Shown piece by piece: positions 10,446 through 55,360 of a stretch of DNA of 64,000 bases. The translations under genes were made by a program, and so were the position numbers. The notes under the pieces are model-generated. The model searched no databases and was not told the origin of the DNA. It saw nothing but the letters and a program-made list of their open reading frames with translations. Position 1 is the first letter of the stretch; the number at the start of each line of letters is the position of its first letter. Source of the stretch: Candidatus Jorgensenbacteria bacterium (GTDB lineage Bacteria; Patescibacteriota; Minisyncoccia; UBA6257; GWB1-50-10); contig JAUSHK010000005.1 in NCBI GenBank assembly GCA_030648515.1, positions 162,895-226,894 of the forward strand, given 5' to 3'.

Positions 10446-11753
10446 TTAGATTCCCCACAAACGAAACGAGCCGGAACTGCTTGTAGCATTTACATTGGAC
10501 GAGCTTGAGTAGTACTTGCTTGAGCCGGTGTAGAAACCGCTCGCATCAAGTCCGCTGGACCAATCCGTTTGCTGAAACGTCGCGTTTTTCCAGCGGGTTA
10601 CGAAACTCGCTAGCGCCGCTTGAAGCGTTGACGCTCCGTTATTCCATTCCACAGTTGCAGTTACTTTTTGTGTTGATGGATCATCGCTTGATCCGCCGGC
10701 GCACGGCGATACGCCGCTTATCGTACTTGATGAATCTGCTGTCCTGCACACATTTTCTACAGAAAACCACCGCGTGAAAATCCTATTGTTATAAAGGCGT
10801 TTTACATCATCTGCCGAGAAAGCGAGGTTATAGATACGGACGTCGTCAATGTAGCCGTTCCAATAAAAACCACTACTATGCCTGCCGATGTAGAGAGTGT
10901 CACTGTTACTTAACGAGCCGCTCTTTGCTGCTATGGTATTTATTAAATCCCCATCTACATACAACGCGGTGCCATTTGTCCTGTCGGCAGAAATGGCAAT
11001 GTTGTACCATATTCCAGTGCTTATTGCGCTACTTGTTGCGAGCGATGAATTCCCACTGCTTACTTCATATCCACCTTGAAATACGTTTGATGGACTAATG
11101 CATAATTGGTAGTTCGGGTATGCAGCCGCATTTTTTGTGATTATACAGTGGTATGCGCCGTCCAAGGCATTTGTATTTACCCATGCCGTTATTGTGAAAT
11201 CCCCGGTTGTGATGTTATTAGTGTTTTCCGCAGTTACATAGGCGTCTACGCCGTTAAAACTCAGACAGTTGCCGATCTTACACGTTGATGATGCCCGCGT
11301 TGGACTGTTCGTGAGAGTCCCATTATTGTTATTTCCCGTCGCGTCATACGTTGTTGTACTCGTTGAGGTGACATCCTCGTCAAATTTCCATTCGCCGACA
11401 AGCCCGTTTGTAACATCATTATCTAAAATGCCTTCTTTCCCCTGAACAACGAAAAGCCTAGAACTTGACGCATTCAAGTAATACTGCGTACTCGTTCCCT
11501 TTGTGAGTCCATATAAGTTTTGCCAACTCTCTCCGCTCCATGCGTTTACTTTATCAATAAGTTCCTGCCCTATGGTTGAAGCGGACTGATTCCGTTCAAT
11601 GCCGACGTTCGAACGCAAAACACTCGAAATCGCTATCGTCGCCCCGCCGATAATAATCGCTCCGACTGACAAACCAATAAGCACTTCAACGAGGGACTGG
11701 CCGACTCGATTAGTTAGTAGTGAGTAGTGAGTAGTGAGTAGTTTTTTAGACAT
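10446..11753 (-). CDS. type IV pilin-like (pseudopilin) protein with C-terminal LamG/concanavalin-like domain
   Basis: The leader MSKKLLTTHYSLLTNRVG is followed by a prepilin cleavage/methylation motif G|QSLVEVLIGL (Glu at +5). The C-terminal LamG-like region reads WNGYIDDVRIYNLAFSADDVKRLYNN. The ORF is open further upstream to 11810 (MSRRDIV...). Confidence 0.7.
   Translation of the reverse strand: MSKKLLTTHYSLLTNRVGQSLVEVLIGLSVGAIIIGGATIAISSVLRSNVGIERNQSASTIGQELIDKVNAWSGESWQNLYGLTKGTSTQYYLNASSSRLFVVQGKEGILDNDVTNGLVGEWKFDEDVTSTSTTTYDATGNNNNGTLTNSPTRASSTCKIGNCLSFNGVDAYVTAENTNNITTGDFTITAWVNTNALDGAYHCIITKNAAAYPNYQLCISPSNVFQGGYEVSSGNSSLATSSAISTGIWYNIAISADRTNGTALYVDGDLINTIAAKSGSLSNSDTLYIGRHSSGFYWNGYIDDVRIYNLAFSADDVKRLYNNRIFTRWFSVENVCRTADSSSTISGVSPCAGGSSDDPSTQKVTATVEWNNGASTLQAALASFVTRWKNATFQQTDWSSGLDASGFYTGSSKYYSSSSNVNATSSSGSFRLWGI
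11712..11743. repeat. 32-nt heptamer-array repeat R, copy 1 (AGTTAGT + 3x AGTGAGT)
   Basis: agttagtagtgagtagtgagtagtgagtagtt matches the copies at 44333 and 46161 at 31 of 32 positions. On the coding strand it is CTACTCA x3.5 and encodes LLTTHYSLLT. Confidence 0.9.
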
Positions 11754-11791
11754 ATGTAAATACGATAAGATTATTTTATCAGTTCTATCTA

Positions 11792-11829
11792 CTATGTCCC
11801 TTCTGGACATCTCCCATAGGGAGACAAAC
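11792..11829. repeat. double-hairpin element H, copy 1 (ctatGTCCCttctGGACatCTCCCataGGGAGacaaac)
   Basis: Two adjacent 4-5 bp hairpins. The second copy, in reverse-complement orientation, is at 44518..44555 (34 of 38 identical). The GGGAG-ATG-TCC core encodes MSRRDIV on the minus strand. Confidence 0.85.
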
Positions 11830-11848
11830 TACCAACTACAAACTTCAC
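11824..11848. repeat. inverted heptamer-array repeat R-prime, copy 1 (acaaactaccaactacaaacttcac)
   Basis: Shares the 17-mer actaccaactacaaact with 46618..46648. Its reverse complement is built of the same AGTNNGT heptamer units as R (AGTTTGT AGTTGGT AGTTTGT). Confidence 0.8.
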
Positions 11849-13020
11849 TTTAGGTCATTATACATGCTCAACACCTCCGCTGCGGTGAGCGCGCGTTTAT
11901 AGATGCGGACCTCGTCAATTGAACCACTGAAATAATCCGTTGATTGCGCCCCTATTGCCGTATACCCGCCAACAGTTTCAGTGTTTGCCTGCGCTAATGT
12001 ATTTGCGCTAAGCGTTTCTTCTGTTCCATCAAGATACAATTTTGGCGTTGTCGCATTTACCCCTATCACAGCGCAAATGTTATGCCAACTTGTATCAATC
12101 GCGGATGTTGATTTAGCATCGCCGTGCCCGGTATGACTGTACCAAAAATTGCCATCTGAAGTTACGGTAAAAATATATCCGTTTGCGGTATTGTCTATTC
12201 CTCCATAATTAATTCTTGTAGAAACTATTCCGCCACCCACGCCGGTGTTTCTTTTTACCCACGCACATATCGTTTTTGCATCGTTTGCGCCTGCGCCTGA
12301 ATTAGTTAGAGCGCTTACATAACTACTTACGCCGTCAAAACTCAGACACCCTCCAGCTTTGCAGCTTGAACCGGAAGCCCAGGTCGGACTATTTGTTGCC
12401 GTGCCATTATTACCCTGTCCTGAAGCGTCATATGTTGTTGTCGCCGTTCCTTCATCAAAATGCCAGTATCCTACCATTCCAGATTCAAAGCGCGTCGTAA
12501 CGCTGCCGCGCGTATTTACAATCACATCTCCCATAAACGCATCAGCGGCGCCGGTTACAATTGATACAATTTTTTTTGATGAAAGCGCGCCTGTTCGCGC
12601 CGCGAACGCTAGGTCAAGCGTACTTGAGGTGTACGGGTTTGAAAATCTTACATTGCGGGTTGAAAGCGCATATGTATTTGTGGTAGTTCCAGCACTAAAG
12701 CTTGTTCCTTGAAACACGTCGTAGATTTGCGAAGAAGTCGTATTGATAAAGTGGACTCCCCACGCGAGCCCGCTCTCCTGGGCTATTGAACGATTTTTTG
12801 CATCGTTTATCGCCGCGGAAAGTTCGCGAAGCGTGAGTTTTATGTTTTGGCTTCCTCCAAATCGCCCCATTACAGCCACGCCAGCAACTGTGAGTATCAC
12901 CATAAGCCCAATCACAATTAAGAGTTCAATGAGGGTGAAACCACCGCACGCCTTGAAGCGCGTTGGTATTAAGTATCTAGTATCATGTATCATGTATTTT
13001 TTCTGCGTATTTTTTTCCAT
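11845..13020 (-). CDS. type IV pilin-like protein with C-terminal LamG domain
   Basis: Classical G|FTLIELLIVIGLM prepilin motif after the leader MEKNTQKKYMIHDTRYLIPTRFKACGG. LamG-like C-terminus reads SGSIDEVRIYKRALTAAEVLSMYNDLK. Confidence 0.75.
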   Translation of the reverse strand: MEKNTQKKYMIHDTRYLIPTRFKACGGFTLIELLIVIGLMVILTVAGVAVMGRFGGSQNIKLTLRELSAAINDAKNRSIAQESGLAWGVHFINTTSSQIYDVFQGTSFSAGTTTNTYALSTRNVRFSNPYTSSTLDLAFAARTGALSSKKIVSIVTGAADAFMGDVIVNTRGSVTTRFESGMVGYWHFDEGTATTTYDASGQGNNGTATNSPTWASGSSCKAGGCLSFDGVSSYVSALTNSGAGANDAKTICAWVKRNTGVGGGIVSTRINYGGIDNTANGYIFTVTSDGNFWYSHTGHGDAKSTSAIDTSWHNICAVIGVNATTPKLYLDGTEETLSANTLAQANTETVGGYTAIGAQSTDYFSGSIDEVRIYKRALTAAEVLSMYNDLK

Positions 13021-13053
13021 ACTTAATACTTTATACTTGCTACCTGATACTTT
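12980..13053. repeat. heptamer tandem arrays at the 5' end of the pilin-like gene: (GTATCAT)x2.5 inside the leader codons and (ATACTTN)x3+1 just upstream
   Basis: gtatcatgtatcatgtat lies at 12980-12997 (coding strand ATACATGATACATGATAC, each unit carrying an ATG). atacttaatactttatacttg...atacttt lies at 13019-13053. Confidence 0.8.
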
Positions 13054-13054
13054 C

Positions 13055-14257
13055 TTAGAACTGCGTCGTGAGTTGGTAAATCGGGATGATAATTGCGAGC
13101 GCTATTACGCCGATTACTACACCAATAAAAAGCAACAACACTGGCTCTAAGAATGAAACGAGTGATTTTACAGAGCCATCAATCTCTTTCATGTAGAAAT
13201 CAGCAAGCGTAGAGAGCACTTCTTCAAGATGCCCGGCGCGTTCGGAGATTGCCACAAGGTTTGTCACCGCCTGCGGAAAATACGGCTCACGTTTAAACGC
13301 CTCACCGATAGTGAGCCCCTTTGCGAGGCCTTCCCGCGAGATGCGCATGAGCGCGATTTTCAAATCAACATTTCCAACGGCGTTTGCAGTGATTTCAATG
13401 GCTTCTGTTATCGGCATACCGGCGCGGATTAAGGAAGAGAGAACCGACGCAAACCGCTGAACGGCGATTTTCCGAACAATATCCCGAATTACCGGAATCT
13501 CATCCACTACGCTCGTTATGAACCTCTTAAACGCCATCGATGATTTGTAGAGATAGGTAATGAAACCAATCACAACAGCGAGCGTCCCGAATATGAGAAT
13601 GCTGTGGTCGCTTAAGAAAAGACCCGCTGTAAAAACAATTTTTGAAAAAAGCGGCGGTTCAAATCCTCCCTGCAAAAATACATTCGCAATTTTAGGCAGT
13701 GCGAACATAACCAAAAAAACAAGAATGGTGACCGACCCCACGAAGAGCAGTGCCGGGTAAATGAGCGCGCCCTTAATCTGGTCGTGCAGTTCTTTCTGCC
13801 GCGTGAGCATGCCCGTGAGATTATCAAAAACATTCTCAAGATTTCCAGAGGCCTCGCCCGCGCGAATCAGATTCGTGTATACCTGGCTGAACACTTTTGG
13901 GTGGCGCGCGAATGTCGTGTAAAACGGATTGCCTTGTTCAAGCGAAGAGCGTATCTCAAGTAAAATATTTTTAACGGCCGGCTTATTAAAATCCGCGATT
14001 AAAATATTTACCGCCTCCATAAGCCCGGTCCCAATCTTTAACATGAGTGTCATATACTTTGAAAGGAAAATCTGGTCTGTGATAGTCACCGTCCCGCTAA
14101 AAATAGAGCGCCGCATTGCGCTTTCCGTCGGCCGCACAGAAACCGGCCGTAGGCCATTTTTCGAAAGAAGCAGAAGAACTTCATTTACATCTTTAGCGTT
14201 AACCTCGTTCTCAATGATTCTTCCGTCCTCCTGCGAAGCAACGTATCTAAATTTCAT
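13055..14257 (-). CDS. pilC: type II secretion/type IV pilus platform protein (GspF/PilC family)
   Basis: 400 aa, polytopic, with duplicated GspF-type domains. Adjacent to the PilB ATPase. Confidence 0.85.
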   Translation of the reverse strand: MKFRYVASQEDGRIIENEVNAKDVNEVLLLLSKNGLRPVSVRPTESAMRRSIFSGTVTITDQIFLSKYMTLMLKIGTGLMEAVNILIADFNKPAVKNILLEIRSSLEQGNPFYTTFARHPKVFSQVYTNLIRAGEASGNLENVFDNLTGMLTRQKELHDQIKGALIYPALLFVGSVTILVFLVMFALPKIANVFLQGGFEPPLFSKIVFTAGLFLSDHSILIFGTLAVVIGFITYLYKSSMAFKRFITSVVDEIPVIRDIVRKIAVQRFASVLSSLIRAGMPITEAIEITANAVGNVDLKIALMRISREGLAKGLTIGEAFKREPYFPQAVTNLVAISERAGHLEEVLSTLADFYMKEIDGSVKSLVSFLEPVLLLFIGVVIGVIALAIIIPIYQLTTQF

Positions 14258-14323: not shown

Positions 14324-16045
14324 CTATTCCCTAATAACTCTAAATATCTCTTCAATCGTTGTAAGTCCGCGCTCAACTTTTTTAAGCCCATCCTCAAACA
14401 TCGTTGTCATCCCCTCGGCGCGCGCGAGCTTTCTCAAATTATCAAGATTGAATTCGCTGCTGATAATGAGTTTCCGTACGGCTTCCGAGATATTCATAAT
14501 TTCAAAAATTCCCATGCGTCCAAGAAAGCCCGTGCCGGCGCAGGCATCGCACCCCTTCCCGCGGTAAAATGTTTTTGTGAGGCGCACTGCTTTTGGATCA
14601 ACGTCCAAGTCGCGCAACTCGCGTTCTATCACGGTGTAAATCTGCGGATCCGGAGTGTATGACTCAATACACTCAAGACAGATTTTTCTGACAAGCCGCT
14701 GGGCGATAATGTCGTTTATAACCGCGGAAACAAGAAACGGTTGGACACCCATATCAATCAAACGCGGAATTACTGTTGGGGCATCGTTTGTGTGAACGCT
14801 TGAGAGCACGAGGTGGCCGGTAAGCGACGCCTGCACGGCAATGTTTGCTGTTTCTCCGTCGCGGATTTCACCGACCATAATAATATTCGGGTCCTGGCGG
14901 AGAATAGACCTAAGCCCTGAAGCAAACGTAATGCCGGCGGCAACGTTTACCTGCACCTGGTTTACATATCGCATATCGTATTCTATCGGGTCTTCGACGG
15001 TCACGATATTAACCTCCGGGCGGTTTAAAATGTTCATTATTGAATACAGCGTCGTCGTTTTACCGCATCCAGTAGGACCGCACGCAAGCACCATACCGTA
15101 TGTTTTCCCAACTGCTTCAAGGATAAGTTTTTGTCCATCGTCAAAAATGCCGAGCTCCGTGAGTGAAAGCGGTTTCTGCGCCGCCGAAAGAAGACGAAGC
15201 ACCATTTTTTCGCCGTAGAACGTCGGGATTACCGAAACGCGGATATCAACTTCCGTGCCGCCGATTTCGTAGCGAAAGCGGCCATCCTGCGGATGCGTGT
15301 GTTCGTCAATGCGCAAGCTTGAAAGAATTTTAATACGGGCGACAATCGCCGGATGAATCTCCTTTGGCATTCTGATAACTTCATGGAGAATGCCGTCAAC
15401 CCGATAGCGCACGAGAACGCCGTCTTCAAGAACTTCAAAATGAACGTCTGAAGCGCGCGAGGAAATTCCGTACGAGAGCAGGTTATCGACGATGGCGACA
15501 ATCGGAAGATCTTTCGCGCTTTCCTCGAGAGTCACTCCTCGCGCCTGAGCGCGAAGCGAATCCTGAATGCTATTTTCAATGACAGTTTTGAAATCCTGTG
15601 TGAGCCGCTCGCTATATAGCGAGAATCCTTTGTTTAAATCGTCTTCTGTCGCAAGATACGGTTCAATCTGCCCGCCAAGCTTAAGAGCTAGAAAATCAAC
15701 CGTCTCAAGATCAATCGGGTCTTCCATCGCCACCTTGAATTGCCCAGTTTCTTCATTTTTTCCAAACACAATCGCCCGCCGTTTCCTGGCAATATCTTCC
15801 GGAATCATGCGGAGCAACGCTTCGTCAATTTTTATAAAGCTTAGGTTTGCCTGCGGAACGCCGAGCGCTTTTGCGGTAAGTGTAAAAAAATAATCTTTAC
15901 TAATGAGCCCGCGCGCAATAAGAATCTCGGCAATGTTTTGCTGTTTCCGCTCTGCTTCTATGCGCATCGTTTCAAACGTCGACTCGTCAAAAATGCCGGC
16001 GCGCAAAAAGATGTCGCGGAGTTTCTCGGCAGGAAGGTTAATCAT
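14324..16045 (-). CDS. pilB: type IV pilus assembly ATPase (GspE/PilB family)
   Basis: 573 aa, Walker A LACGPTGCGKTTTLYS, C-terminal tetracysteine motif CLEC...CDAC. Confidence 0.9.
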   Translation of the reverse strand: MINLPAEKLRDIFLRAGIFDESTFETMRIEAERKQQNIAEILIARGLISKDYFFTLTAKALGVPQANLSFIKIDEALLRMIPEDIARKRRAIVFGKNEETGQFKVAMEDPIDLETVDFLALKLGGQIEPYLATEDDLNKGFSLYSERLTQDFKTVIENSIQDSLRAQARGVTLEESAKDLPIVAIVDNLLSYGISSRASDVHFEVLEDGVLVRYRVDGILHEVIRMPKEIHPAIVARIKILSSLRIDEHTHPQDGRFRYEIGGTEVDIRVSVIPTFYGEKMVLRLLSAAQKPLSLTELGIFDDGQKLILEAVGKTYGMVLACGPTGCGKTTTLYSIMNILNRPEVNIVTVEDPIEYDMRYVNQVQVNVAAGITFASGLRSILRQDPNIIMVGEIRDGETANIAVQASLTGHLVLSSVHTNDAPTVIPRLIDMGVQPFLVSAVINDIIAQRLVRKICLECIESYTPDPQIYTVIERELRDLDVDPKAVRLTKTFYRGKGCDACAGTGFLGRMGIFEIMNISEAVRKLIISSEFNLDNLRKLARAEGMTTMFEDGLKKVERGLTTIEEIFRVIRE

Positions 16046-17168: not shown

Positions 17169-17333
17169 AGTGTGACTATATCGCAAAACTTTTATTTGCA
17201 CAACACCAACGGATTCCGATTTAGAGATTAAAGATTTTTTTAGTTATCCCAGCGGGCCGAGACATAAAGGCTCATCGGCTAACACCTTAATTTTAAACTA
17301 TACAATTTTAAAAACTGTATAACGACGAATATA

Positions 17334-18826
<1,493 letters not shown>

Positions 18827-33545: not shown

Positions 33546-33620
33546 TTTGTGCTGCACAGAAGCGGGAATTTAACCCGCGAGTTTTCTTTGTGAGAAAAGA
33601 CGATCGTTTTCTGCGCTGCG

Positions 33621-33690
33621 CGGCGGGAGAAGGATTCGAACCTCCGTAATCCCATTTGAATAGGATGCTCTGCCTCTAAGCTATCCCGCC
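33621..33690 (-). tRNA. tRNA with non-canonical anticodon loop (6- or 8-nt; candidate anticodons CAA/UCA), G73 discriminator
   Basis: Good acceptor (GGCGGGA/TCCCGCC), D arm and canonical T arm (GGAGG-TTCGAAT-CCTTC). The anticodon region ATCCT-ATTCAAAT-GGGAT only folds with an 8-nt loop; the alternative TCCTA/TGGGA stem leaves a 6-nt loop. Confidence 0.55.
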
Positions 33691-33820: not shown

Positions 33821-33824
33821 GTCG

Positions 33825-33897
33825 AACGGGGAGAAGGACTTGAACCTCCGACCTAATGCTCCCGAAGCACTTGCTCTACCAGCTGAGCTATCCCCGT
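33825..33897 (-). tRNA. tRNA-Pro (anticodon CGG)
   Basis: ACGGGGA-TA-GCTC-AGCTGGTA-GAGC-A-AGTGC-TTCGGGA-GCATT-AGGTC-GGAGG-TTCAAGT-CCTTC-TCCCCGT-T. A1-U72 and U73 are atypical for tRNA-Pro. Confidence 0.7.
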
Positions 33898-41618: not shown

Positions 41619-41797
41619 AGAATTAACTTATAACTAATAATGTATAACCTATGACCCATGACGATTGCTGTTATTTGTTATTGGTTATTTGTTATACGTT
41701 GCTTTTATTTTTGACCTTTCATTGACGGCCGACGACCTATGACATCCAATGGCCGTAATTAGTTCCTTGTCGTTTGTCATTAGTTATTAGTCATTTG
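41619..41797. repeat. AT-rich intergenic region with several short direct and inverted repeats (candidate promoter/regulator-binding region)
   Basis: ttatttgttat x2, three ATGAC-centred copies (cctatgac, ccatgacg, cctatgacat), and ttgtcattagtta/ttagtcatttgtcac. Confidence 0.45.
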
Positions 41798-44230: not shown

Positions 44231-46240
44231 TTATTTAATAATAAAGCTTGCTTTTTCATTTTGATCTTTCGCTAATGTGGGCCAATTTTTCCAATCAAAT
44301 CGCTTTCCGACGAGGCGGAAGGAGATGGGAATAGTTTGTAGTGAGTAGTGAGTAGTGAGTAGTTGAGCGGAGAAGATGACTTTGTTGCCGGAGATTGCGT
44401 ATGAAACTGGGGCTGATACTCCGATTGGGGTGGCAAAAACATCAACATTGTCAGCGGAAAAATCCACGGCGTTTTTCCAGACCCACAGGTCCGAGCCCAC
44501 CTCGACTTTAGAAAAGTCGATGACGTGCTCGTAGGAGTTTGTCTCCCTACGGGAGATGTCCCGTAGGGACATAGTTGGGACAAGAGTCGCGCGACCGATA
44601 AATTCTTCACGGACGCCTCCGGCGATTGCCGACGCGTATGTTGAATATTTTTTCCCATCAATTTCATAGAGCGGATCGATAGTCGCCGCAGTGATTTTAT
44701 TTACTCCTACAAGATTATTGTTATTCATATTCAAATTTGTGATCGCCGCGCCGCCGAATGAAAGATTGCCGTTCAGCGACGATGTTCCGGTGACGAGAAA
44801 TGTTCCTTCAACAGAGAGCGTGTTTGTCGGAGTTGTCGTTGCGATGCCGACTGCTCCGGAAGTCGTGAGCGAGTATGGCATCTGCCCCGCATCGGGATCA
44901 AAATAATACGAGGAATCCGCAACGTCGTAATAAACGCCGGCCGAGAGATTGCCGTGGATGATGGCACTTTTTACGAACGATCCTGCCGGGCCGACTTCCA
45001 AGTATTCCGTCGGGGATGTGGTTGCGATACCAACTTTCCATGCCGTGCTTGATGCGTATATCGTGCTTCCGTTGAGCAACCAGAGTCCGGCGCTACCACC
45101 CGAGATAGCAGAGTCAACATAACTTTTCGTTGTGGCATCACTATCGCCTACTGGCGTCCCCACGACTACTGGCTGGGAAAAATACGAAGTGCCATTTACT
45201 TCAAATTTGTATGACGGGGAAGTAGTCGCTATACCGACGTTTCCGCCGTTTGGATTTAATAACAATGGTATTTCTGTCGCGAGATTACTTGAGTCATAAC
45301 CCTGTAGCCATGCCCCATATGGGGATGAAAGAGCTACGCCCATATCTAGAGCACCATTTGTGTTTCCGCTCCAAATACGAAATAACCCATTAGTAGTTGT
45401 TCCGGATGTTGCGGGTCCCACTGCAGCACCTGCAATAATTAATTTTGCATTTGGAAAATTTAATCCACCCCAAGTGTTGACTCCAATAGATGCGCTGCCA
45501 ATAACATCTAATTTATTTACCGGAGTACTGGTACCAATTCCAACATTTCCTGCTGTCGTCGCAAGCGTTGTTGTGCCGGTTATGTTTGTTGTACCAAGCG
45601 TGTAAAATGTCGCCGGCAAATTGCTTGTTGTTGAAGTACCAACAGCTAGACCGAGCGGAAACGCGTAATTTGCAGTTGTAAATGGACCGCCTAAAACATT
45701 CGCGGCGTCAATACTTGAAAGATACGCGCCCGTCCCGCGAAACGCGCCGTTTACTGTGCGTATGTCGCCCCCAACAATTAGCCGTTCATCAACGCCTGTT
45801 GAGGTCGCTTTAATGCCGATTCCAATACTGCCAAACTTATTAATGTCCATAACGACAAATCCTGGTAGGTTATCTGGCGCCCCTGATTCTCGATAAAGCT
45901 GGAGATTGCCAAAATTGCGGGCCGACCAAATATATGAATGGCCCGAGGTAAGGTTCTTTACGCCGACTCCAGGACTTGTTGTTGAAGCTACTATAAACAC
46001 GTACCCGTGCGACGACGAGCCGCTTTCCGTTGAGGTGGTGTTAAAAGTACTAACTGGGGAAGGCGCCGTTGTTCCAAAACCGATATTTAAATTTGAATCA
46101 ACACTAAACAGTCCCCCGCCGGTGCCCGCGGATTGGGTAGGACCGATGAAGGCACGGACAGTTTGTAGTGAGTAGTGAGTAGTGAGTAGTTCGAAAACGA
46201 GAATTACTACTACAAAGAAAGTTCTAGGGAAGTTTTTCAT
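44231..46240 (-). CDS. tail-fibre-repeat surface protein (contains the R repeat at both ends and the H element)
   Basis: Hydrophobic N-terminus, multiple VGIATTSPxxxLEV-type repeats, and a long Gly/Thr/Ser-rich beta-helix-like body. R copies lie at 46161-46192 (codons 17-27) and 44333-44364 (near the C-terminus). H lies at 44518-44555, antisense. Confidence 0.5.
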   Translation of the reverse strand: MKNFPRTFFVVVILVFELLTTHYSLQTVRAFIGPTQSAGTGGGLFSVDSNLNIGFGTTAPSPVSTFNTTSTESGSSSHGYVFIVASTTSPGVGVKNLTSGHSYIWSARNFGNLQLYRESGAPDNLPGFVVMDINKFGSIGIGIKATSTGVDERLIVGGDIRTVNGAFRGTGAYLSSIDAANVLGGPFTTANYAFPLGLAVGTSTTSNLPATFYTLGTTNITGTTTLATTAGNVGIGTSTPVNKLDVIGSASIGVNTWGGLNFPNAKLIIAGAAVGPATSGTTTNGLFRIWSGNTNGALDMGVALSSPYGAWLQGYDSSNLATEIPLLLNPNGGNVGIATTSPSYKFEVNGTSYFSQPVVVGTPVGDSDATTKSYVDSAISGGSAGLWLLNGSTIYASSTAWKVGIATTSPTEYLEVGPAGSFVKSAIIHGNLSAGVYYDVADSSYYFDPDAGQMPYSLTTSGAVGIATTTPTNTLSVEGTFLVTGTSSLNGNLSFGGAAITNLNMNNNNLVGVNKITAATIDPLYEIDGKKYSTYASAIAGGVREEFIGRATLVPTMSLRDISRRETNSYEHVIDFSKVEVGSDLWVWKNAVDFSADNVDVFATPIGVSAPVSYAISGNKVIFSAQLLTTHYSLQTIPISFRLVGKRFDWKNWPTLAKDQNEKASFIIK
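44333..44364. repeat. 32-nt heptamer-array repeat R, copy 2
   Basis: agtttgtagtgagtagtgagtagtgagtagtt is identical to 46161-46192. Confidence 0.9.
44518..44555. repeat. double-hairpin element H, copy 2 (inverted relative to copy 1)
   Basis: gtttgtCTCCCtacGGGAGatGTCCCgtaGGGACatag is the reverse complement of the 11792-11829 architecture. The plus-strand ATG at 44536 opens a 37-codon ORF MSRRDIVGTRV... Confidence 0.85.
46161..46192. repeat. 32-nt heptamer-array repeat R, copy 3
   Basis: Identical to 44333-44364. Lies just inside the 5' end of ORF 44231..46240 and 45 nt downstream of the avd-like gene's stop. Confidence 0.9.
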
Positions 46241-46614
46241 AGACTGTTTACTAATTTATTCAACATTTTCATCACTTCACTTAATAGTTTTTGAGATTCG
46301 CCACAAAATTCGGTATTGTTGCAAAAATTTAGTTGTCTTGCAATTTCAATTTGAGTTTCTAGCTCAGCGCCGGACCCATAAGCGTTTAGTAAAAAATGTC
46401 GAAAATCTTTTCGTGAACTTCTTCTGCTTCCTTCGGCGATGTTTGAAGGTATTGAAACTACGGCTCGCTTCATCTGTATCCCAAGCGCGTATGTTTCCGT
46501 TTGTGGAAATTGATTAACTAATTTGTAAATTGATTTCACTAATTCCATGGATTTATTCCAAACTATTAAATCTTTGTATGAGCTTATTTTATCTGTTGAG
46601 TTTTGTTGTTCCAT
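46237..46614 (-). CDS. four-helix-bundle protein (23S rRNA intervening-sequence protein / Avd-like, TIGR02436 family)
   Basis: YKDLIVWNKSMELVKSIYKLVNQFPQTETYALGIQMKRAVVSIPSNIAEGSRRSSRKDFRHFLLNAYGSGAELETQIEIARQL is the canonical pattern of this family. Confidence 0.8.
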   Translation of the reverse strand: MEQQNSTDKISSYKDLIVWNKSMELVKSIYKLVNQFPQTETYALGIQMKRAVVSIPSNIAEGSRRSSRKDFRHFLLNAYGSGAELETQIEIARQLNFCNNTEFCGESQKLLSEVMKMLNKLVNSL

Positions 46615-46617
46615 TTT

Positions 46618-46648
46618 CTACTCACTACCAACTACAAACTACTCACTG
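46618..46648. repeat. inverted heptamer-array repeat R-prime, copy 2
   Basis: ctactcactaccaactacaaactactcactg lies 4 nt upstream of the avd-like start codon. It is inverted relative to R at 46161-46192. Confidence 0.8.
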
Positions 46649-46656
46649 CTTCATTC

Positions 46657-47181
46657 CTATGGAATGACAATCAGCTGTCCCTGAATCTTTCCTCCCGACG
46701 GGCAGTGATCACGGCACTCGAAGAGAAACGAACCAACTGTGCCGGCTTTAAAACTGATTTGTTTTGTCTCTCCTTTTGGCGCTGTTATGTAAAATCCGAA
46801 ACTTTCCGAAAACATATCGTACGCATTATCCACGGCGGTAAAGTCAATCGTCACAATATTTCCGCGCCCAACAGTGAGCACTGCCGGATCGTAGCCATTT
46901 TTTGTCGCTTTTACTCCGTAAAATCCCTGCCGTTTTGTTTCTCCCGGGTCGGGTTTGATATCGACAGCGGGAGGCGTAAGTGCTGCGTTTTTAGGAACTT
47001 CCGGCGTGAAAGCCGGAATAATTTCCGGCACAGCCGGCCTTTCATTTGTTGATGTCGCCGTTTGCGTAGTTCCGCCTGTCCCCGGCAATGCCGCCTTTTG
47101 GCGCGCAAAAAAACCGGCCGCCGCGATACCAATAATAACAAGTACGAGCGCAACAATAAGCCCGAGATCTTTTTTGCTCAT
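46657..47181 (-). CDS. membrane-anchored cupredoxin-fold paralog
   Basis: TM anchor, TP-rich linker, then TIDFTAVDNAYDMF...SFLFECRDHCPSGGKIQGQLIV. Paralogous to 38353. Confidence 0.5.
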   Translation of the reverse strand: MSKKDLGLIVALVLVIIGIAAAGFFARQKAALPGTGGTTQTATSTNERPAVPEIIPAFTPEVPKNAALTPPAVDIKPDPGETKRQGFYGVKATKNGYDPAVLTVGRGNIVTIDFTAVDNAYDMFSESFGFYITAPKGETKQISFKAGTVGSFLFECRDHCPSGGKIQGQLIVIP

Positions 47182-55285: not shown

Positions 55286-55289
55286 TTTG

Positions 55290-55360
55290 TCGGGCTGCTG
55301 GGAATCGAACCCAGTCTACACCGACCCGAACGGTGCGTACTACCGGTATACTACAGCCCG
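55290..55360 (-). tRNA. tRNA-Pro (anticodon CGG)
   Basis: CGGGCTG-TA-GTAT-ACCGGTA-GTAC-G-CACCG-TTCGGGT-CGGTG-TAGA-CTGGG-TTCGATT-CCCAG-CAGCCCG-A. C1-G72 and A73 fit Pro. The 3' end is 4 nt from the dedA start codon. Confidence 0.8.

Follow-up and report, generated by a model that had tools for sequence, protein, structure and literature searches.

Why are the start codon of a pilin-like gene and the DNA around it enclosed by two arrays of the same 7-nt unit in opposite orientation? This question is raised by a locus near 11.7 kb in a 64-kb stretch, hereafter the window, of a Candidatus Jorgensenbacteria genome (Patescibacteria/candidate phyla radiation, CPR). There, the arrays R′ and R form an imperfect palindromic cassette of AGTNNGT heptamers at the junction of two co-directional LamG pilin-like genes, 1 and 2 (Table 1). 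The reading we favor, with a probability of roughly 0.55, is that R′ and R are the arms of a miniature member, lacking an open reading frame (ORF), of a family of cassettes resembling the intervening sequences (IVSs) of rRNA genes, here residing in mRNA and not in rRNA. Larger members of this family hold a PF05635 or PF13366 gene in their loop, and one such cassette lies at 46 kb in the same window.

An earlier note on this DNA had described the two inverted heptamer arrays, and we recovered both with coordinates agreeing to within a few bases. Tandem Repeats Finder placed R at 11711-11742 (period 7, 4.6 copies, 96% matches) and R′ at 11824-11844, while a scan for period-7 runs gave 11709-11744 for R. 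The sense (minus) strand of R′ reads AGTTTGTAGTTGGTAGTTTG (11825-11844), immediately 3′ of the TGA at 11845-11847. An inverted-repeat search returned arms at 11726-11744 and 11826-11844 (19 nt, 79% complementary, 81 nt apart), and the 13-nt arm pairing claimed earlier (11/13) was borne out by hand, with 11 Watson-Crick pairs, one G-U pair and one mismatch. For the motif GTAGTNNGTAGT, the window has 12 matches where 0.03 would be expected by chance, all of them at five sites (R and R′ at 11.7 kb, 44.3 kb and 46.2/46.6 kb), and ACTACTCACTACTCACTAC with up to three mismatches occurs 10 times against 0.01 expected. All five short-period arrays in the window (periods 4-12 scanned) have period 7. 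A 412-kb set of related CPR DNA gave 82 period-7 arrays, compared with 3-19 for other periods and 2 after shuffling.

Read along the sense strand, the 5′ arm R′ begins 1 nt past the stop codon of gene 1, whose C-terminus (YNDLK before the stop) is kept in four homologous loci (L121, L122, L173 and L160). R′ is followed by a 30-nt segment with two small hairpins, both of which appear in the predicted fold, and with an upstream candidate ATG (11808-11810). This double hairpin and the ATG at 11810, to which the earlier note had drawn attention, are present but form an insertion (11795-11824) that is missing from the otherwise 80-100% identical element of an orthologous locus, L121; ATG 11810 therefore cannot be the conserved start. 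Both start candidates named in that note do lie in the bracketed segment, and the true start is ATG 11753, as indicated by the public LamG-domain protein P0001 (435 aa, Candidatus Jorgensenbacteria), to which the protein of 10446-11753 is identical.

Between the double hairpin and ATG 11753 the sense strand reads TAGTAGATAGAACTGATAAAATAATCTTATCGTATTTACAT. The conserved loop block holds an extended -10-like motif of the form TGnTAAAAT (TGATAAAAT, 11773-11781) that is also conserved in L121. A promoter at this position is possible but statistically unsupported, as promoter-like matches occurred at chance level (2 found versus 1.2 expected). A terminator scan found none, and a search of 11500-12000 against Rfam at a permissive threshold matched no family.

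The 3′ arm R is translated. Its 4.6 copies of a unit whose length is not divisible by 3 occupy codons 5-14 of the leader and read LLTTHYSLLT, and the sequence contains no in-frame start between R and the G/QSL site (the slash marking the cleavage point). Past R, the codons CGA GTC GGC/CAG TCC CTC GTT GAA encode the prepilin cleavage/methylation motif G/QSLVE; Pfam N_methyl covers residues 18-38 of the product, and G18, Q19, S20, L21 and E23 are invariant among 19 homologues. Homologues without the insert have short leaders, for example MRKRKG and MKNKRSG. The leader including its repeat-encoded segment is probably removed by prepilin peptidase at G/QSL, and the mature pilin would therefore be undamaged by the insertion.

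To compare orthologous junctions, we used about 80 homologous loci from metagenomes and three further loci obtained by exact protein look-up; the homologous loci are metagenomic contigs, some of them related to one another. L121 belongs to another Jorgensenbacteria genome, in which PilC is 67.5% identical to that of the window and the pilins 39-49%. Its R′ is identical at 21/21 positions and likewise directly follows a stop codon, and both the loop block TAGAACTGATAAAAT and the ATG..AAAAAA-R junction are kept. Nucleotide identity between the two genomes is 80-100% across 11865-11700 compared with 25-70% in flanking coding DNA, so that the element is conserved above its flanking genes. The two elements differ by reciprocal indels of exactly 30 nt: L121 carries a GC-rich in-frame insert (L121:3040-3069) within an R arm that is also degenerate, and the window carries the AT/GC double hairpin in the loop. 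A closer relative (L122/L125; PilC 80%, pilin 62%) has arms of TTTTCAA repeats (behind the stop) and of TTGAAAA-type repeats (in the leader) that keep the positions and the inverted relationship of the arms in the window despite the different heptamer. Both arms have thus been replaced together in the closer relative.

Sorted by the distance from the upstream stop to the G/QSL codon, the junctions occur in three states. Empty junctions (48-51 nt; L134, L184, L135) encode short basic leaders such as MQREKRKLKFVCDRSG. The ORF-less inverted-array state (75-161 nt) comprises 13 loci including the window, all of which are laid out as stop, 5′ arm, ATG, A-rich codons and 3′ arm. In the ORF-carrying state (420-481 nt), a gene lies between inverted arrays: PF05635 in L173 and L160, and PF13366 (PD-(D/E)XK) in L124. 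In L173 the pilin ATG and the PF05635 stop overlap (ATGA), with MKKLITHYSLLKSIEG as the leader; the arrangement is that of the 46-kb cassette. Gene callers at times fuse PF05635 or PF13366 genes in frame to the pilin (P0085, P0092), and such in-frame "fusions" in metagenome gene calls are probably cassette read-throughs.

Among 70 distinct homologous junctions, 15 have heptamer-array leaders. Pairing was ranked with an ungapped helix score in place of RNAduplex energies. The latter are dominated by large interior loops and were therefore uninformative, at -26.4 kcal/mol for cognate and -25.3 kcal/mol for non-cognate upstream/leader pairs. The cognate upstream region ranked in the top 4 of 70 for 6 of the 15 array leaders (0.9 expected, p about 1e-4), a test that is not fully independent because related loci are included; for leaders without arrays it did so in 4/55 cases, with no enrichment. 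When arrays were paired by their consensus heptamer, an inverted distance of at most 1 was seen in 7/53 neighboring pairs against a null of 4.8%, an enrichment that is only modest; imperfect arms escape this detector.

Of the interpretations offered in the earlier note, that of terminal inverted repeats bounding a miniature element is the best supported: at 46 kb the same arms surround a PF05635 gene, the orthologous junctions elsewhere vary between empty, ORF-less and ORF-carrying, and 7/7 independently sampled PF05635 genes lie between co-oriented array arms. The 46-kb pair of arms had been reported as well and is real (Table 1). The R′ 17-mer is present both at 46 kb and in the groES-groEL spacer of a Patescibacteria contig (L099), where R′ sequence and R form a compact hairpin. 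In viral contigs, the same 17-mer gave 14 matches to coding sequence (QFVVGS, tail-fibre-like genes) without arrays, which we rejected as unrelated. The PF05635 protein at 46 kb is a bAvd-like four-helix bundle, and the stop of its gene overlaps the ATG of the next one (ATGA). Its previous designation as avd-like is right by fold family but does not extend to a retroelement. The neighbors are a cupredoxin-like gene, an ORF without Pfam match and CysRS, and we rejected a diversity-generating retroelement because no reverse transcriptase stands beside the gene. The predicted fold of this cassette contains the long-range stem (z-score -3.9), with 25/31 Watson-Crick pairs.

For an independent view, PF05635 genes were picked solely by protein similarity and length of contig, giving a small sample of 7 genes at 6 loci. 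All seven lie in short gaps before a co-directional gene, and six also directly after one; these gaps include those separating the small from the large subunit of NiFe-hydrogenase and a histidine kinase from a PAS protein. In 7/7, heptamer arrays precede the gene and an inverted arm follows it; in 3/7 the helix was short and no better than in controls. One of the sampled cassettes (L224) lies in the same genome as L121 and has the same GTAGTGA/CTACTCA arms.

To gauge the spread of such arms, we scanned one genome per species for GTAGTGAGTAGTGAGTAGT, which yielded at least 120 loci (L001-L120); what follows holds among the matches listed. They span Bacteroidota, Cyanobacteria, Alphaproteobacteria, Planctomycetota, Acidobacteriota and CPR. 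Of the 104 usable (GTAGTGA)n arrays, 29 are followed within 1 kb by a complementary partner and none (0/104) is preceded by one. The loops of these pairs range from 10 nt to about 900 nt and mostly measure 10-98 nt. Two larger loops contain PF05635 genes (L048, Hyphomicrobiales; L012, Prevotella); as these are the only two among the 120 loci, a PF05635 gene beside every (GTAGTGA)n array is ruled out. The (GTAGTGA)n arrays usually stand amid other heptamer arrays (GTGAATA, GTGAGTG, CAGTAGT, GTGATTA).

All RNA structures considered here are predictions. The long-range mRNA stem that the earlier note had proposed around the start region is supported at this level: the R′/R stem is found in the minimum free energy and centroid structures of both a 153-nt and a 321-nt fragment, and it recurs in L121 and L122. 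In the sense RNA of 11700-11852 (153 nt), R′ and R form the closing stem (-45.5 kcal/mol, z -4.8), with 0/200 shuffles folding as well, and the stem persists within the 321-nt fragment. A closing stem is likewise predicted for L122 (z -3.9), whose arms are built from a different heptamer. The same architecture recurs at the start of pilin gene 1, where (AAGTATN)n, past the PilC stop, serves as the 5′ arm and (GATACWT)n, within the leader, as the 3′ arm, with ATG 13020 at the edge of a predicted stem (12965-13044; z -3.5; 22/28 Watson-Crick pairs).

The closest known counterparts are the IVSs of 23S rRNA genes in Coxiella, Leptospira, Salmonella and others. In Coxiella, a 28-bp stem of terminal inverted repeats encloses the S23p (PF05635) gene in its loop, and three tandem heptamers (GACAGAT), varying in copy number between strains, lie just before the S23p start (PMC4990558). 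This IVS is cut out by RNase III, which cleaves at the first heptamer repeat; IVSs are regarded as selfish elements of unknown origin, and earlier proposals of their mobility have been cited (PMC4990558). Common ground with the window is a long stem of terminal inverted repeats, a variable loop that is ORF-less or carries an S23p/PF05635 gene, and tandem heptamers at the stem/ORF junction. The 46-kb cassette has all of these features and the 11.7-kb element all except the ORF: its own loop is ORF-less, whereas PF05635 occupies the loop at 46237-46614 and in the orthologous L173 and L160 junctions. In contrast to the rRNA IVSs, the element lies between protein-coding genes and not in helix 25 or 45 of 23S rRNA, its 3′ arm is translated within the prepilin leader, and any RNase III excision would here remove the downstream start codon.

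In the 11.7-kb cassette, the 5′ arm, rich in stops, abuts the upstream stop codon; an A/T-rich block that is conserved occupies the loop together with the start codon (ATG TCT AAA AAA), and the 3′ arm, open in all frames, is read through as part of the prepilin leader. In the mechanism we propose, the arms may pair in vivo on a read-through operon transcript and enclose the translation start region. By analogy with IVSs, the stem could then serve as an RNase III-type substrate; alternatively, it could make downstream initiation depend on ribosomes or on processing. Ribosomes translating from the ATG in the loop would melt it.

Several points weigh against an IVS-like cassette at 11.7 kb. RNase III cleavage in the stem would fall inside the pilin frame and detach the start codon, so that IVS-style excision would silence the read-through mRNA and not mature it. 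A promoter in the loop, possible though not above chance, would yield transcripts lacking R′. The element also fails the literal definition of an IVS because it is not in rRNA, and neither target-site duplications (flanks checked by eye) nor mobility genes were identified. In L121, the R′/R stem is predicted, yet the fold is no better than shuffles (z -1.3). Among the arm mismatches, G-U does not outnumber A-C (10 vs 13 among 353 positions); this gives no support to RNA-level selection specifically, and the complementarity could instead reflect a palindrome at the DNA level. To these may be added the partial dependence of the helix ranks and the scarcity of PF05635 genes in other phyla, where only 2-3 of the 120 listed (GTAGTGA)n loci have one.

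A wider form of the cassette reading, tentative and on balance doubtful, would regard inverted heptamer-array cassettes as cross-phylum selfish insertion modules able to insert at an operon junction or into the 5′ end of a gene while sparing the host gene, with the rRNA IVSs as their rRNA-resident subset. The 5′ arm of such a module would provide stops in all frames and the 3′ arm the n-region of a cleavable signal or prepilin leader. Its loop would optionally encode either a nucleic-acid-binding bundle (PF05635) or a PD-(D/E)XK nuclease (PF13366), which might act in mobility or homing, and the loop gene would be followed by an overlapping ATGA restart and Lys codons.

REP/BIME, ERIC, Correia and RUP are dispersed palindromic intercistronic elements, and Rickettsia palindromic elements insert in frame into genes. 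Some of these palindromes act as RNase III or stability determinants, and some are tolerated inside reading frames. Like REP elements and miniature inverted-repeat transposable elements, the 11.7-kb element is a short imperfect palindrome within an operon, present or absent at orthologous sites, with dispersed copies (R-type at 11.7, 44.3 and 46.2 kb; R′ at 11.8 and 46.6 kb; also in L121, L224 and L099). It differs from them in having heptamer-array arms in place of a unique consensus, in loops that are unrelated among 11.7 kb, 46 kb and L099, and in that no dedicated transposase or target-site duplication was identified.

The most serious competitor of the IVS-like cassette, though we judge it unlikely, is a regulatory hairpin that evolved in place, with a stem that couples or gates pilin translation to the upstream cistron or stabilizes a processed pilin mRNA. 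At every junction examined the 5′ arm starts 0-8 nt past the upstream stop, so a terminating ribosome would melt it; an ATG with an A-rich stretch sits in the apical loop at many loci, the stem is predicted in three orthologues, and the element is conserved more than its flanks. Evolution in place does not account for identical arms at unrelated sites (the 46-kb PF05635 gene, the L099 groES-groEL spacer and L224), and the arms lack G-U bias. Moreover, the closer L122 has wholly different arms and the more distant L121 identical ones, a pattern that replacement or spread fits better than in-place compensatory change.

Phase variation, in which R would gain or lose one 7-nt unit by strand slippage, shifting the leader frame and switching the pilin off or on, is improbable. 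R is a nearly perfect 4.6-copy repeat in the frame of a surface protein, with a unit not divisible by 3, and since all three frames of R are open, slippage would affect only the downstream frame; heptamer copy number also differs between Coxiella strains (PMC4990558). Nevertheless, slippage leaves R′, the complementarity and the same arms in a non-coding spacer (L099) unexplained, and in L121 the degenerate R and its 30-nt insert would suppress slippage, yet the element is conserved. With contingency loci and invertible promoter switches of pilus or adhesin genes, the locus shares repeats at the 5′ end of a surface gene; complementary arrays, occurrence in a groESL spacer and the lack of a recombinase do not fit.

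Heptanucleotide repeats are themselves a known phenomenon, and the arrays could have arisen neutrally by polymerase slippage and been tolerated where constraint is low, in a cleavable leader and a short spacer; this we consider very improbable. Heptameric repeats are over-represented in many bacterial genomes, for which a polymerase-footprint explanation has been proposed (PMC4692102), and the excess of period 7 in CPR DNA described above agrees with this. The TAACTGA repeats of Beggiatoaceae, Cyanobacteria and Bacteroidetes are 7-nt units next to start codons with unknown function (PMC4679880); their arrays contain stops when read one way and are open when read the other way, and of 170 sets in the Beggiatoa genome a single one was inverted (PMC4679880; PMC4692102). 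Such repeats (cyanobacterial, TAACTGA, Xanthomonas GGGAATC) resemble those studied here in having 2-6 copies, short spacers by start codons and a patchy distribution across phyla, and in coding properties: GTAGTGA contains TAG and TGA stops, and ACTACTC arrays read LLTTHYS in every frame. They are mainly direct arrays, however, whereas ours form an inverted pair of fixed polarity around a start codon or a small gene. Neutral slippage is further contradicted by the element being the most conserved stretch of the region between genomes whose flanking proteins are about 40-50% identical, by R′ consisting of ordered variant units (AGTTTGT AGTTGGT AGTTTGT), exact in three genomes and not homogeneous, and by the strict polarity of arm order among the matches listed (29 vs 0).

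An invertible switch, also raised in the earlier note, in which recombination between R and R′ would flip the 80-bp segment with its start codon and possible promoter, is suggested by inverted repeats around the start codon of a surface-protein gene and a weak promoter-like site inside, but is exceedingly unlikely given arms that are only 79% complementary with short identical runs, no recombinase among annotated neighbors within about 10 kb, a loop orientation identical in L121, a PF05635/PF13366 gene always oriented as the downstream gene in the ORF-carrying cassettes seen, and loop sizes among the matches listed (10 nt to about 900 nt) unlike those of invertase sites.

IVSs and S23p/PF05635 genes have been known for more than 30 years and the over-representation of heptameric repeats is also long known. 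The present locus links IVS/PF05635 and heptamer repeats outside rRNA, as one arm family surrounds both a PF05635 gene and a pilin-like start. An orthologous junction is available for comparison in three states (empty, hairpin, and hairpin plus gene), which makes cassette spread and the role of the stem testable. The odd low-complexity leaders of many CPR surface proteins (LLTTHYSLL, KIENCKLEI, NNCQLSVVNC) are translated repeat arms. CPR bacteria depend on pili for their episymbiotic lifestyle, and if the stems are processed or gate initiation, they would provide these bacteria with a general means of controlling type IV pilus components post-transcriptionally.

Table 1 Positions of the heptamer-array elements and associated genes in the window
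Feature	Position	Strand	Remarks
R′, 5′ arm	11825..11844	-	sense AGTTTGT AGTTGGT AGTTTG; stops in all three frames
30-nt insertion with two small hairpins	11795..11824	-	TCTCCC-TAT-GGGAGA and ATGTCC-AGAAG-GGACAT
Conserved loop block TAGTAGATAGAACTGATAAAAT	11773..11794	-	15/15 identical to L121 over TAGAACTGATAAAAT
Start codon of LamG pilin-like gene 2, then TCT AAA AAA	11751..11753	-	from translation; P0001 starts here
R, 3′ arm	11709..11744	-	sense CTACTCACTACTCACTACTCACTACTAACTAAT, (ACTACTC)n, open in all three frames
18-codon prepilin-type leader MSKKLLTTHYSLLTNRVG	11700..11753	-	ends at conserved G/QSLVEV motif (MSKKLLTTHYSLLTNRVG/QSL)
TGA stop of LamG pilin-like gene 1	11845..11847	-	from ORF list
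LamG pilin-like gene 2, element at its 5′ end	10446-11753	-	Pfam Laminin_G_3, E 1e-25
LamG pilin-like gene 1	11845-13020	-	Pfam Laminin_G_3 and N_methyl
PilC	13055-14257	-	operon member
PilB	14324-16045	-	operon member
Second arm pair, pilin gene 1	12965..13044	-	same architecture as 11.7-kb element
R′-type 5′ arm CAGTGAGTAGTTTGTAGTTGGTAGTGAGTAG	46618..46648	-	8 nt past stop of cupredoxin-like gene 46657-47181
PF05635 "23S rRNA intervening sequence protein" gene in loop	46237..46614	-	Pfam E 1.3e-35
R-type 3′ arm	46160..46193	-	translated LLTTHYSLQT near N-terminus of 669-aa ORF
Solo R copy	44332..44365	-	32 bp identical to 46160-46191; C-terminal part of 669-aa ORF, same frame; no partner arm nearby

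According to the ORF list and Pfam, the minus-strand genes around the 11.7-kb element form a type IV pilus-like operon, which besides the members in Table 1 includes a small ORF of no named family and a coupling-protein-like ATPase. Over 709-21479, the neighbors are rpoB, YceG, FtsW, TIM, the coupling-protein-like ATPase, the pilins, PilC and PilB, together with 16S rRNA, L25, an SLT-domain protein and two ORFs without Pfam match. The product of gene 2 has 135 homologues, mostly in Patescibacteria, and the protein itself was present on a single contig. A complete 16S rRNA gene (17328-18826) stands alone between a pilin gene and the ribosomal protein L25 gene; it is the sole rRNA gene in the window, where neither 23S nor 5S was found.

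Close homologues (60-70% identity) of the window's PF05635 protein number in the thousands, most on contigs of 0.5-5 kb, as would be expected should assemblies break at the flanking repeats. L123:1251-1935 and L149:1-500 encode a divergent PF05635 subfamily that has about 35 residues inserted internally and is joined in frame to the pilin homologue; its gene is flanked by purine-rich repeats of about 10 nt (TTAAAGGAG / TTAAGGGA) that are direct and not inverted, with copies also inside the gene. In L224, an IS200/IS605-type Y1 transposase gene (PF01797; L224:65-781) lies 0.7 kb upstream of the PF05635 cassette and is flanked by a 31-35-nt palindrome containing GGAAGTCCGACTTCC; L172 has a similar palindrome upstream of its pilin. 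DNA hairpins are what Y1 transposases act on, and this could be relevant to how hairpin elements move.

The 669-aa ORF (44231-46240, minus strand) contains a perfect 32-bp direct repeat, AGTTTGTAGTGAGTAGTGAGTAGTGAGTAGTT on the plus strand, at 44333-44364 and 46160-46191, 1827 bp apart. Both copies are in one frame (LLTTHYSLQT twice), near the N- and C-termini, and a recombination event joining the two would reduce the gene to a short in-frame ORF. Four small paralogous cupredoxin-like proteins (PF13473; 38353-38892, 40448-41026, 41037-41618 and 46657-47181) are dispersed in a cell-surface gene cluster that also contains an 809-aa LamG/FN3 protein and the PF05635 cassette. The spacer between the LamG/FN3 gene and a cupredoxin-like gene (41619-41797) holds several heptamer arrays (TGACAAA/TGACTAA, ATAACAA), with one inverted pair (ATAACAA... 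/ TTATTAG TTATAAG) just upstream of ATG 41618. Elsewhere in the window, two tRNA-Pro(CGG) genes were annotated (33824-33897 and 55289-55360), and at 33620-33690 ARAGORN reported a "tRNA-???" with undetermined anticodon (ca) that scores 55 bits against the Rfam tRNA model and may have an unusual or interrupted anticodon loop.

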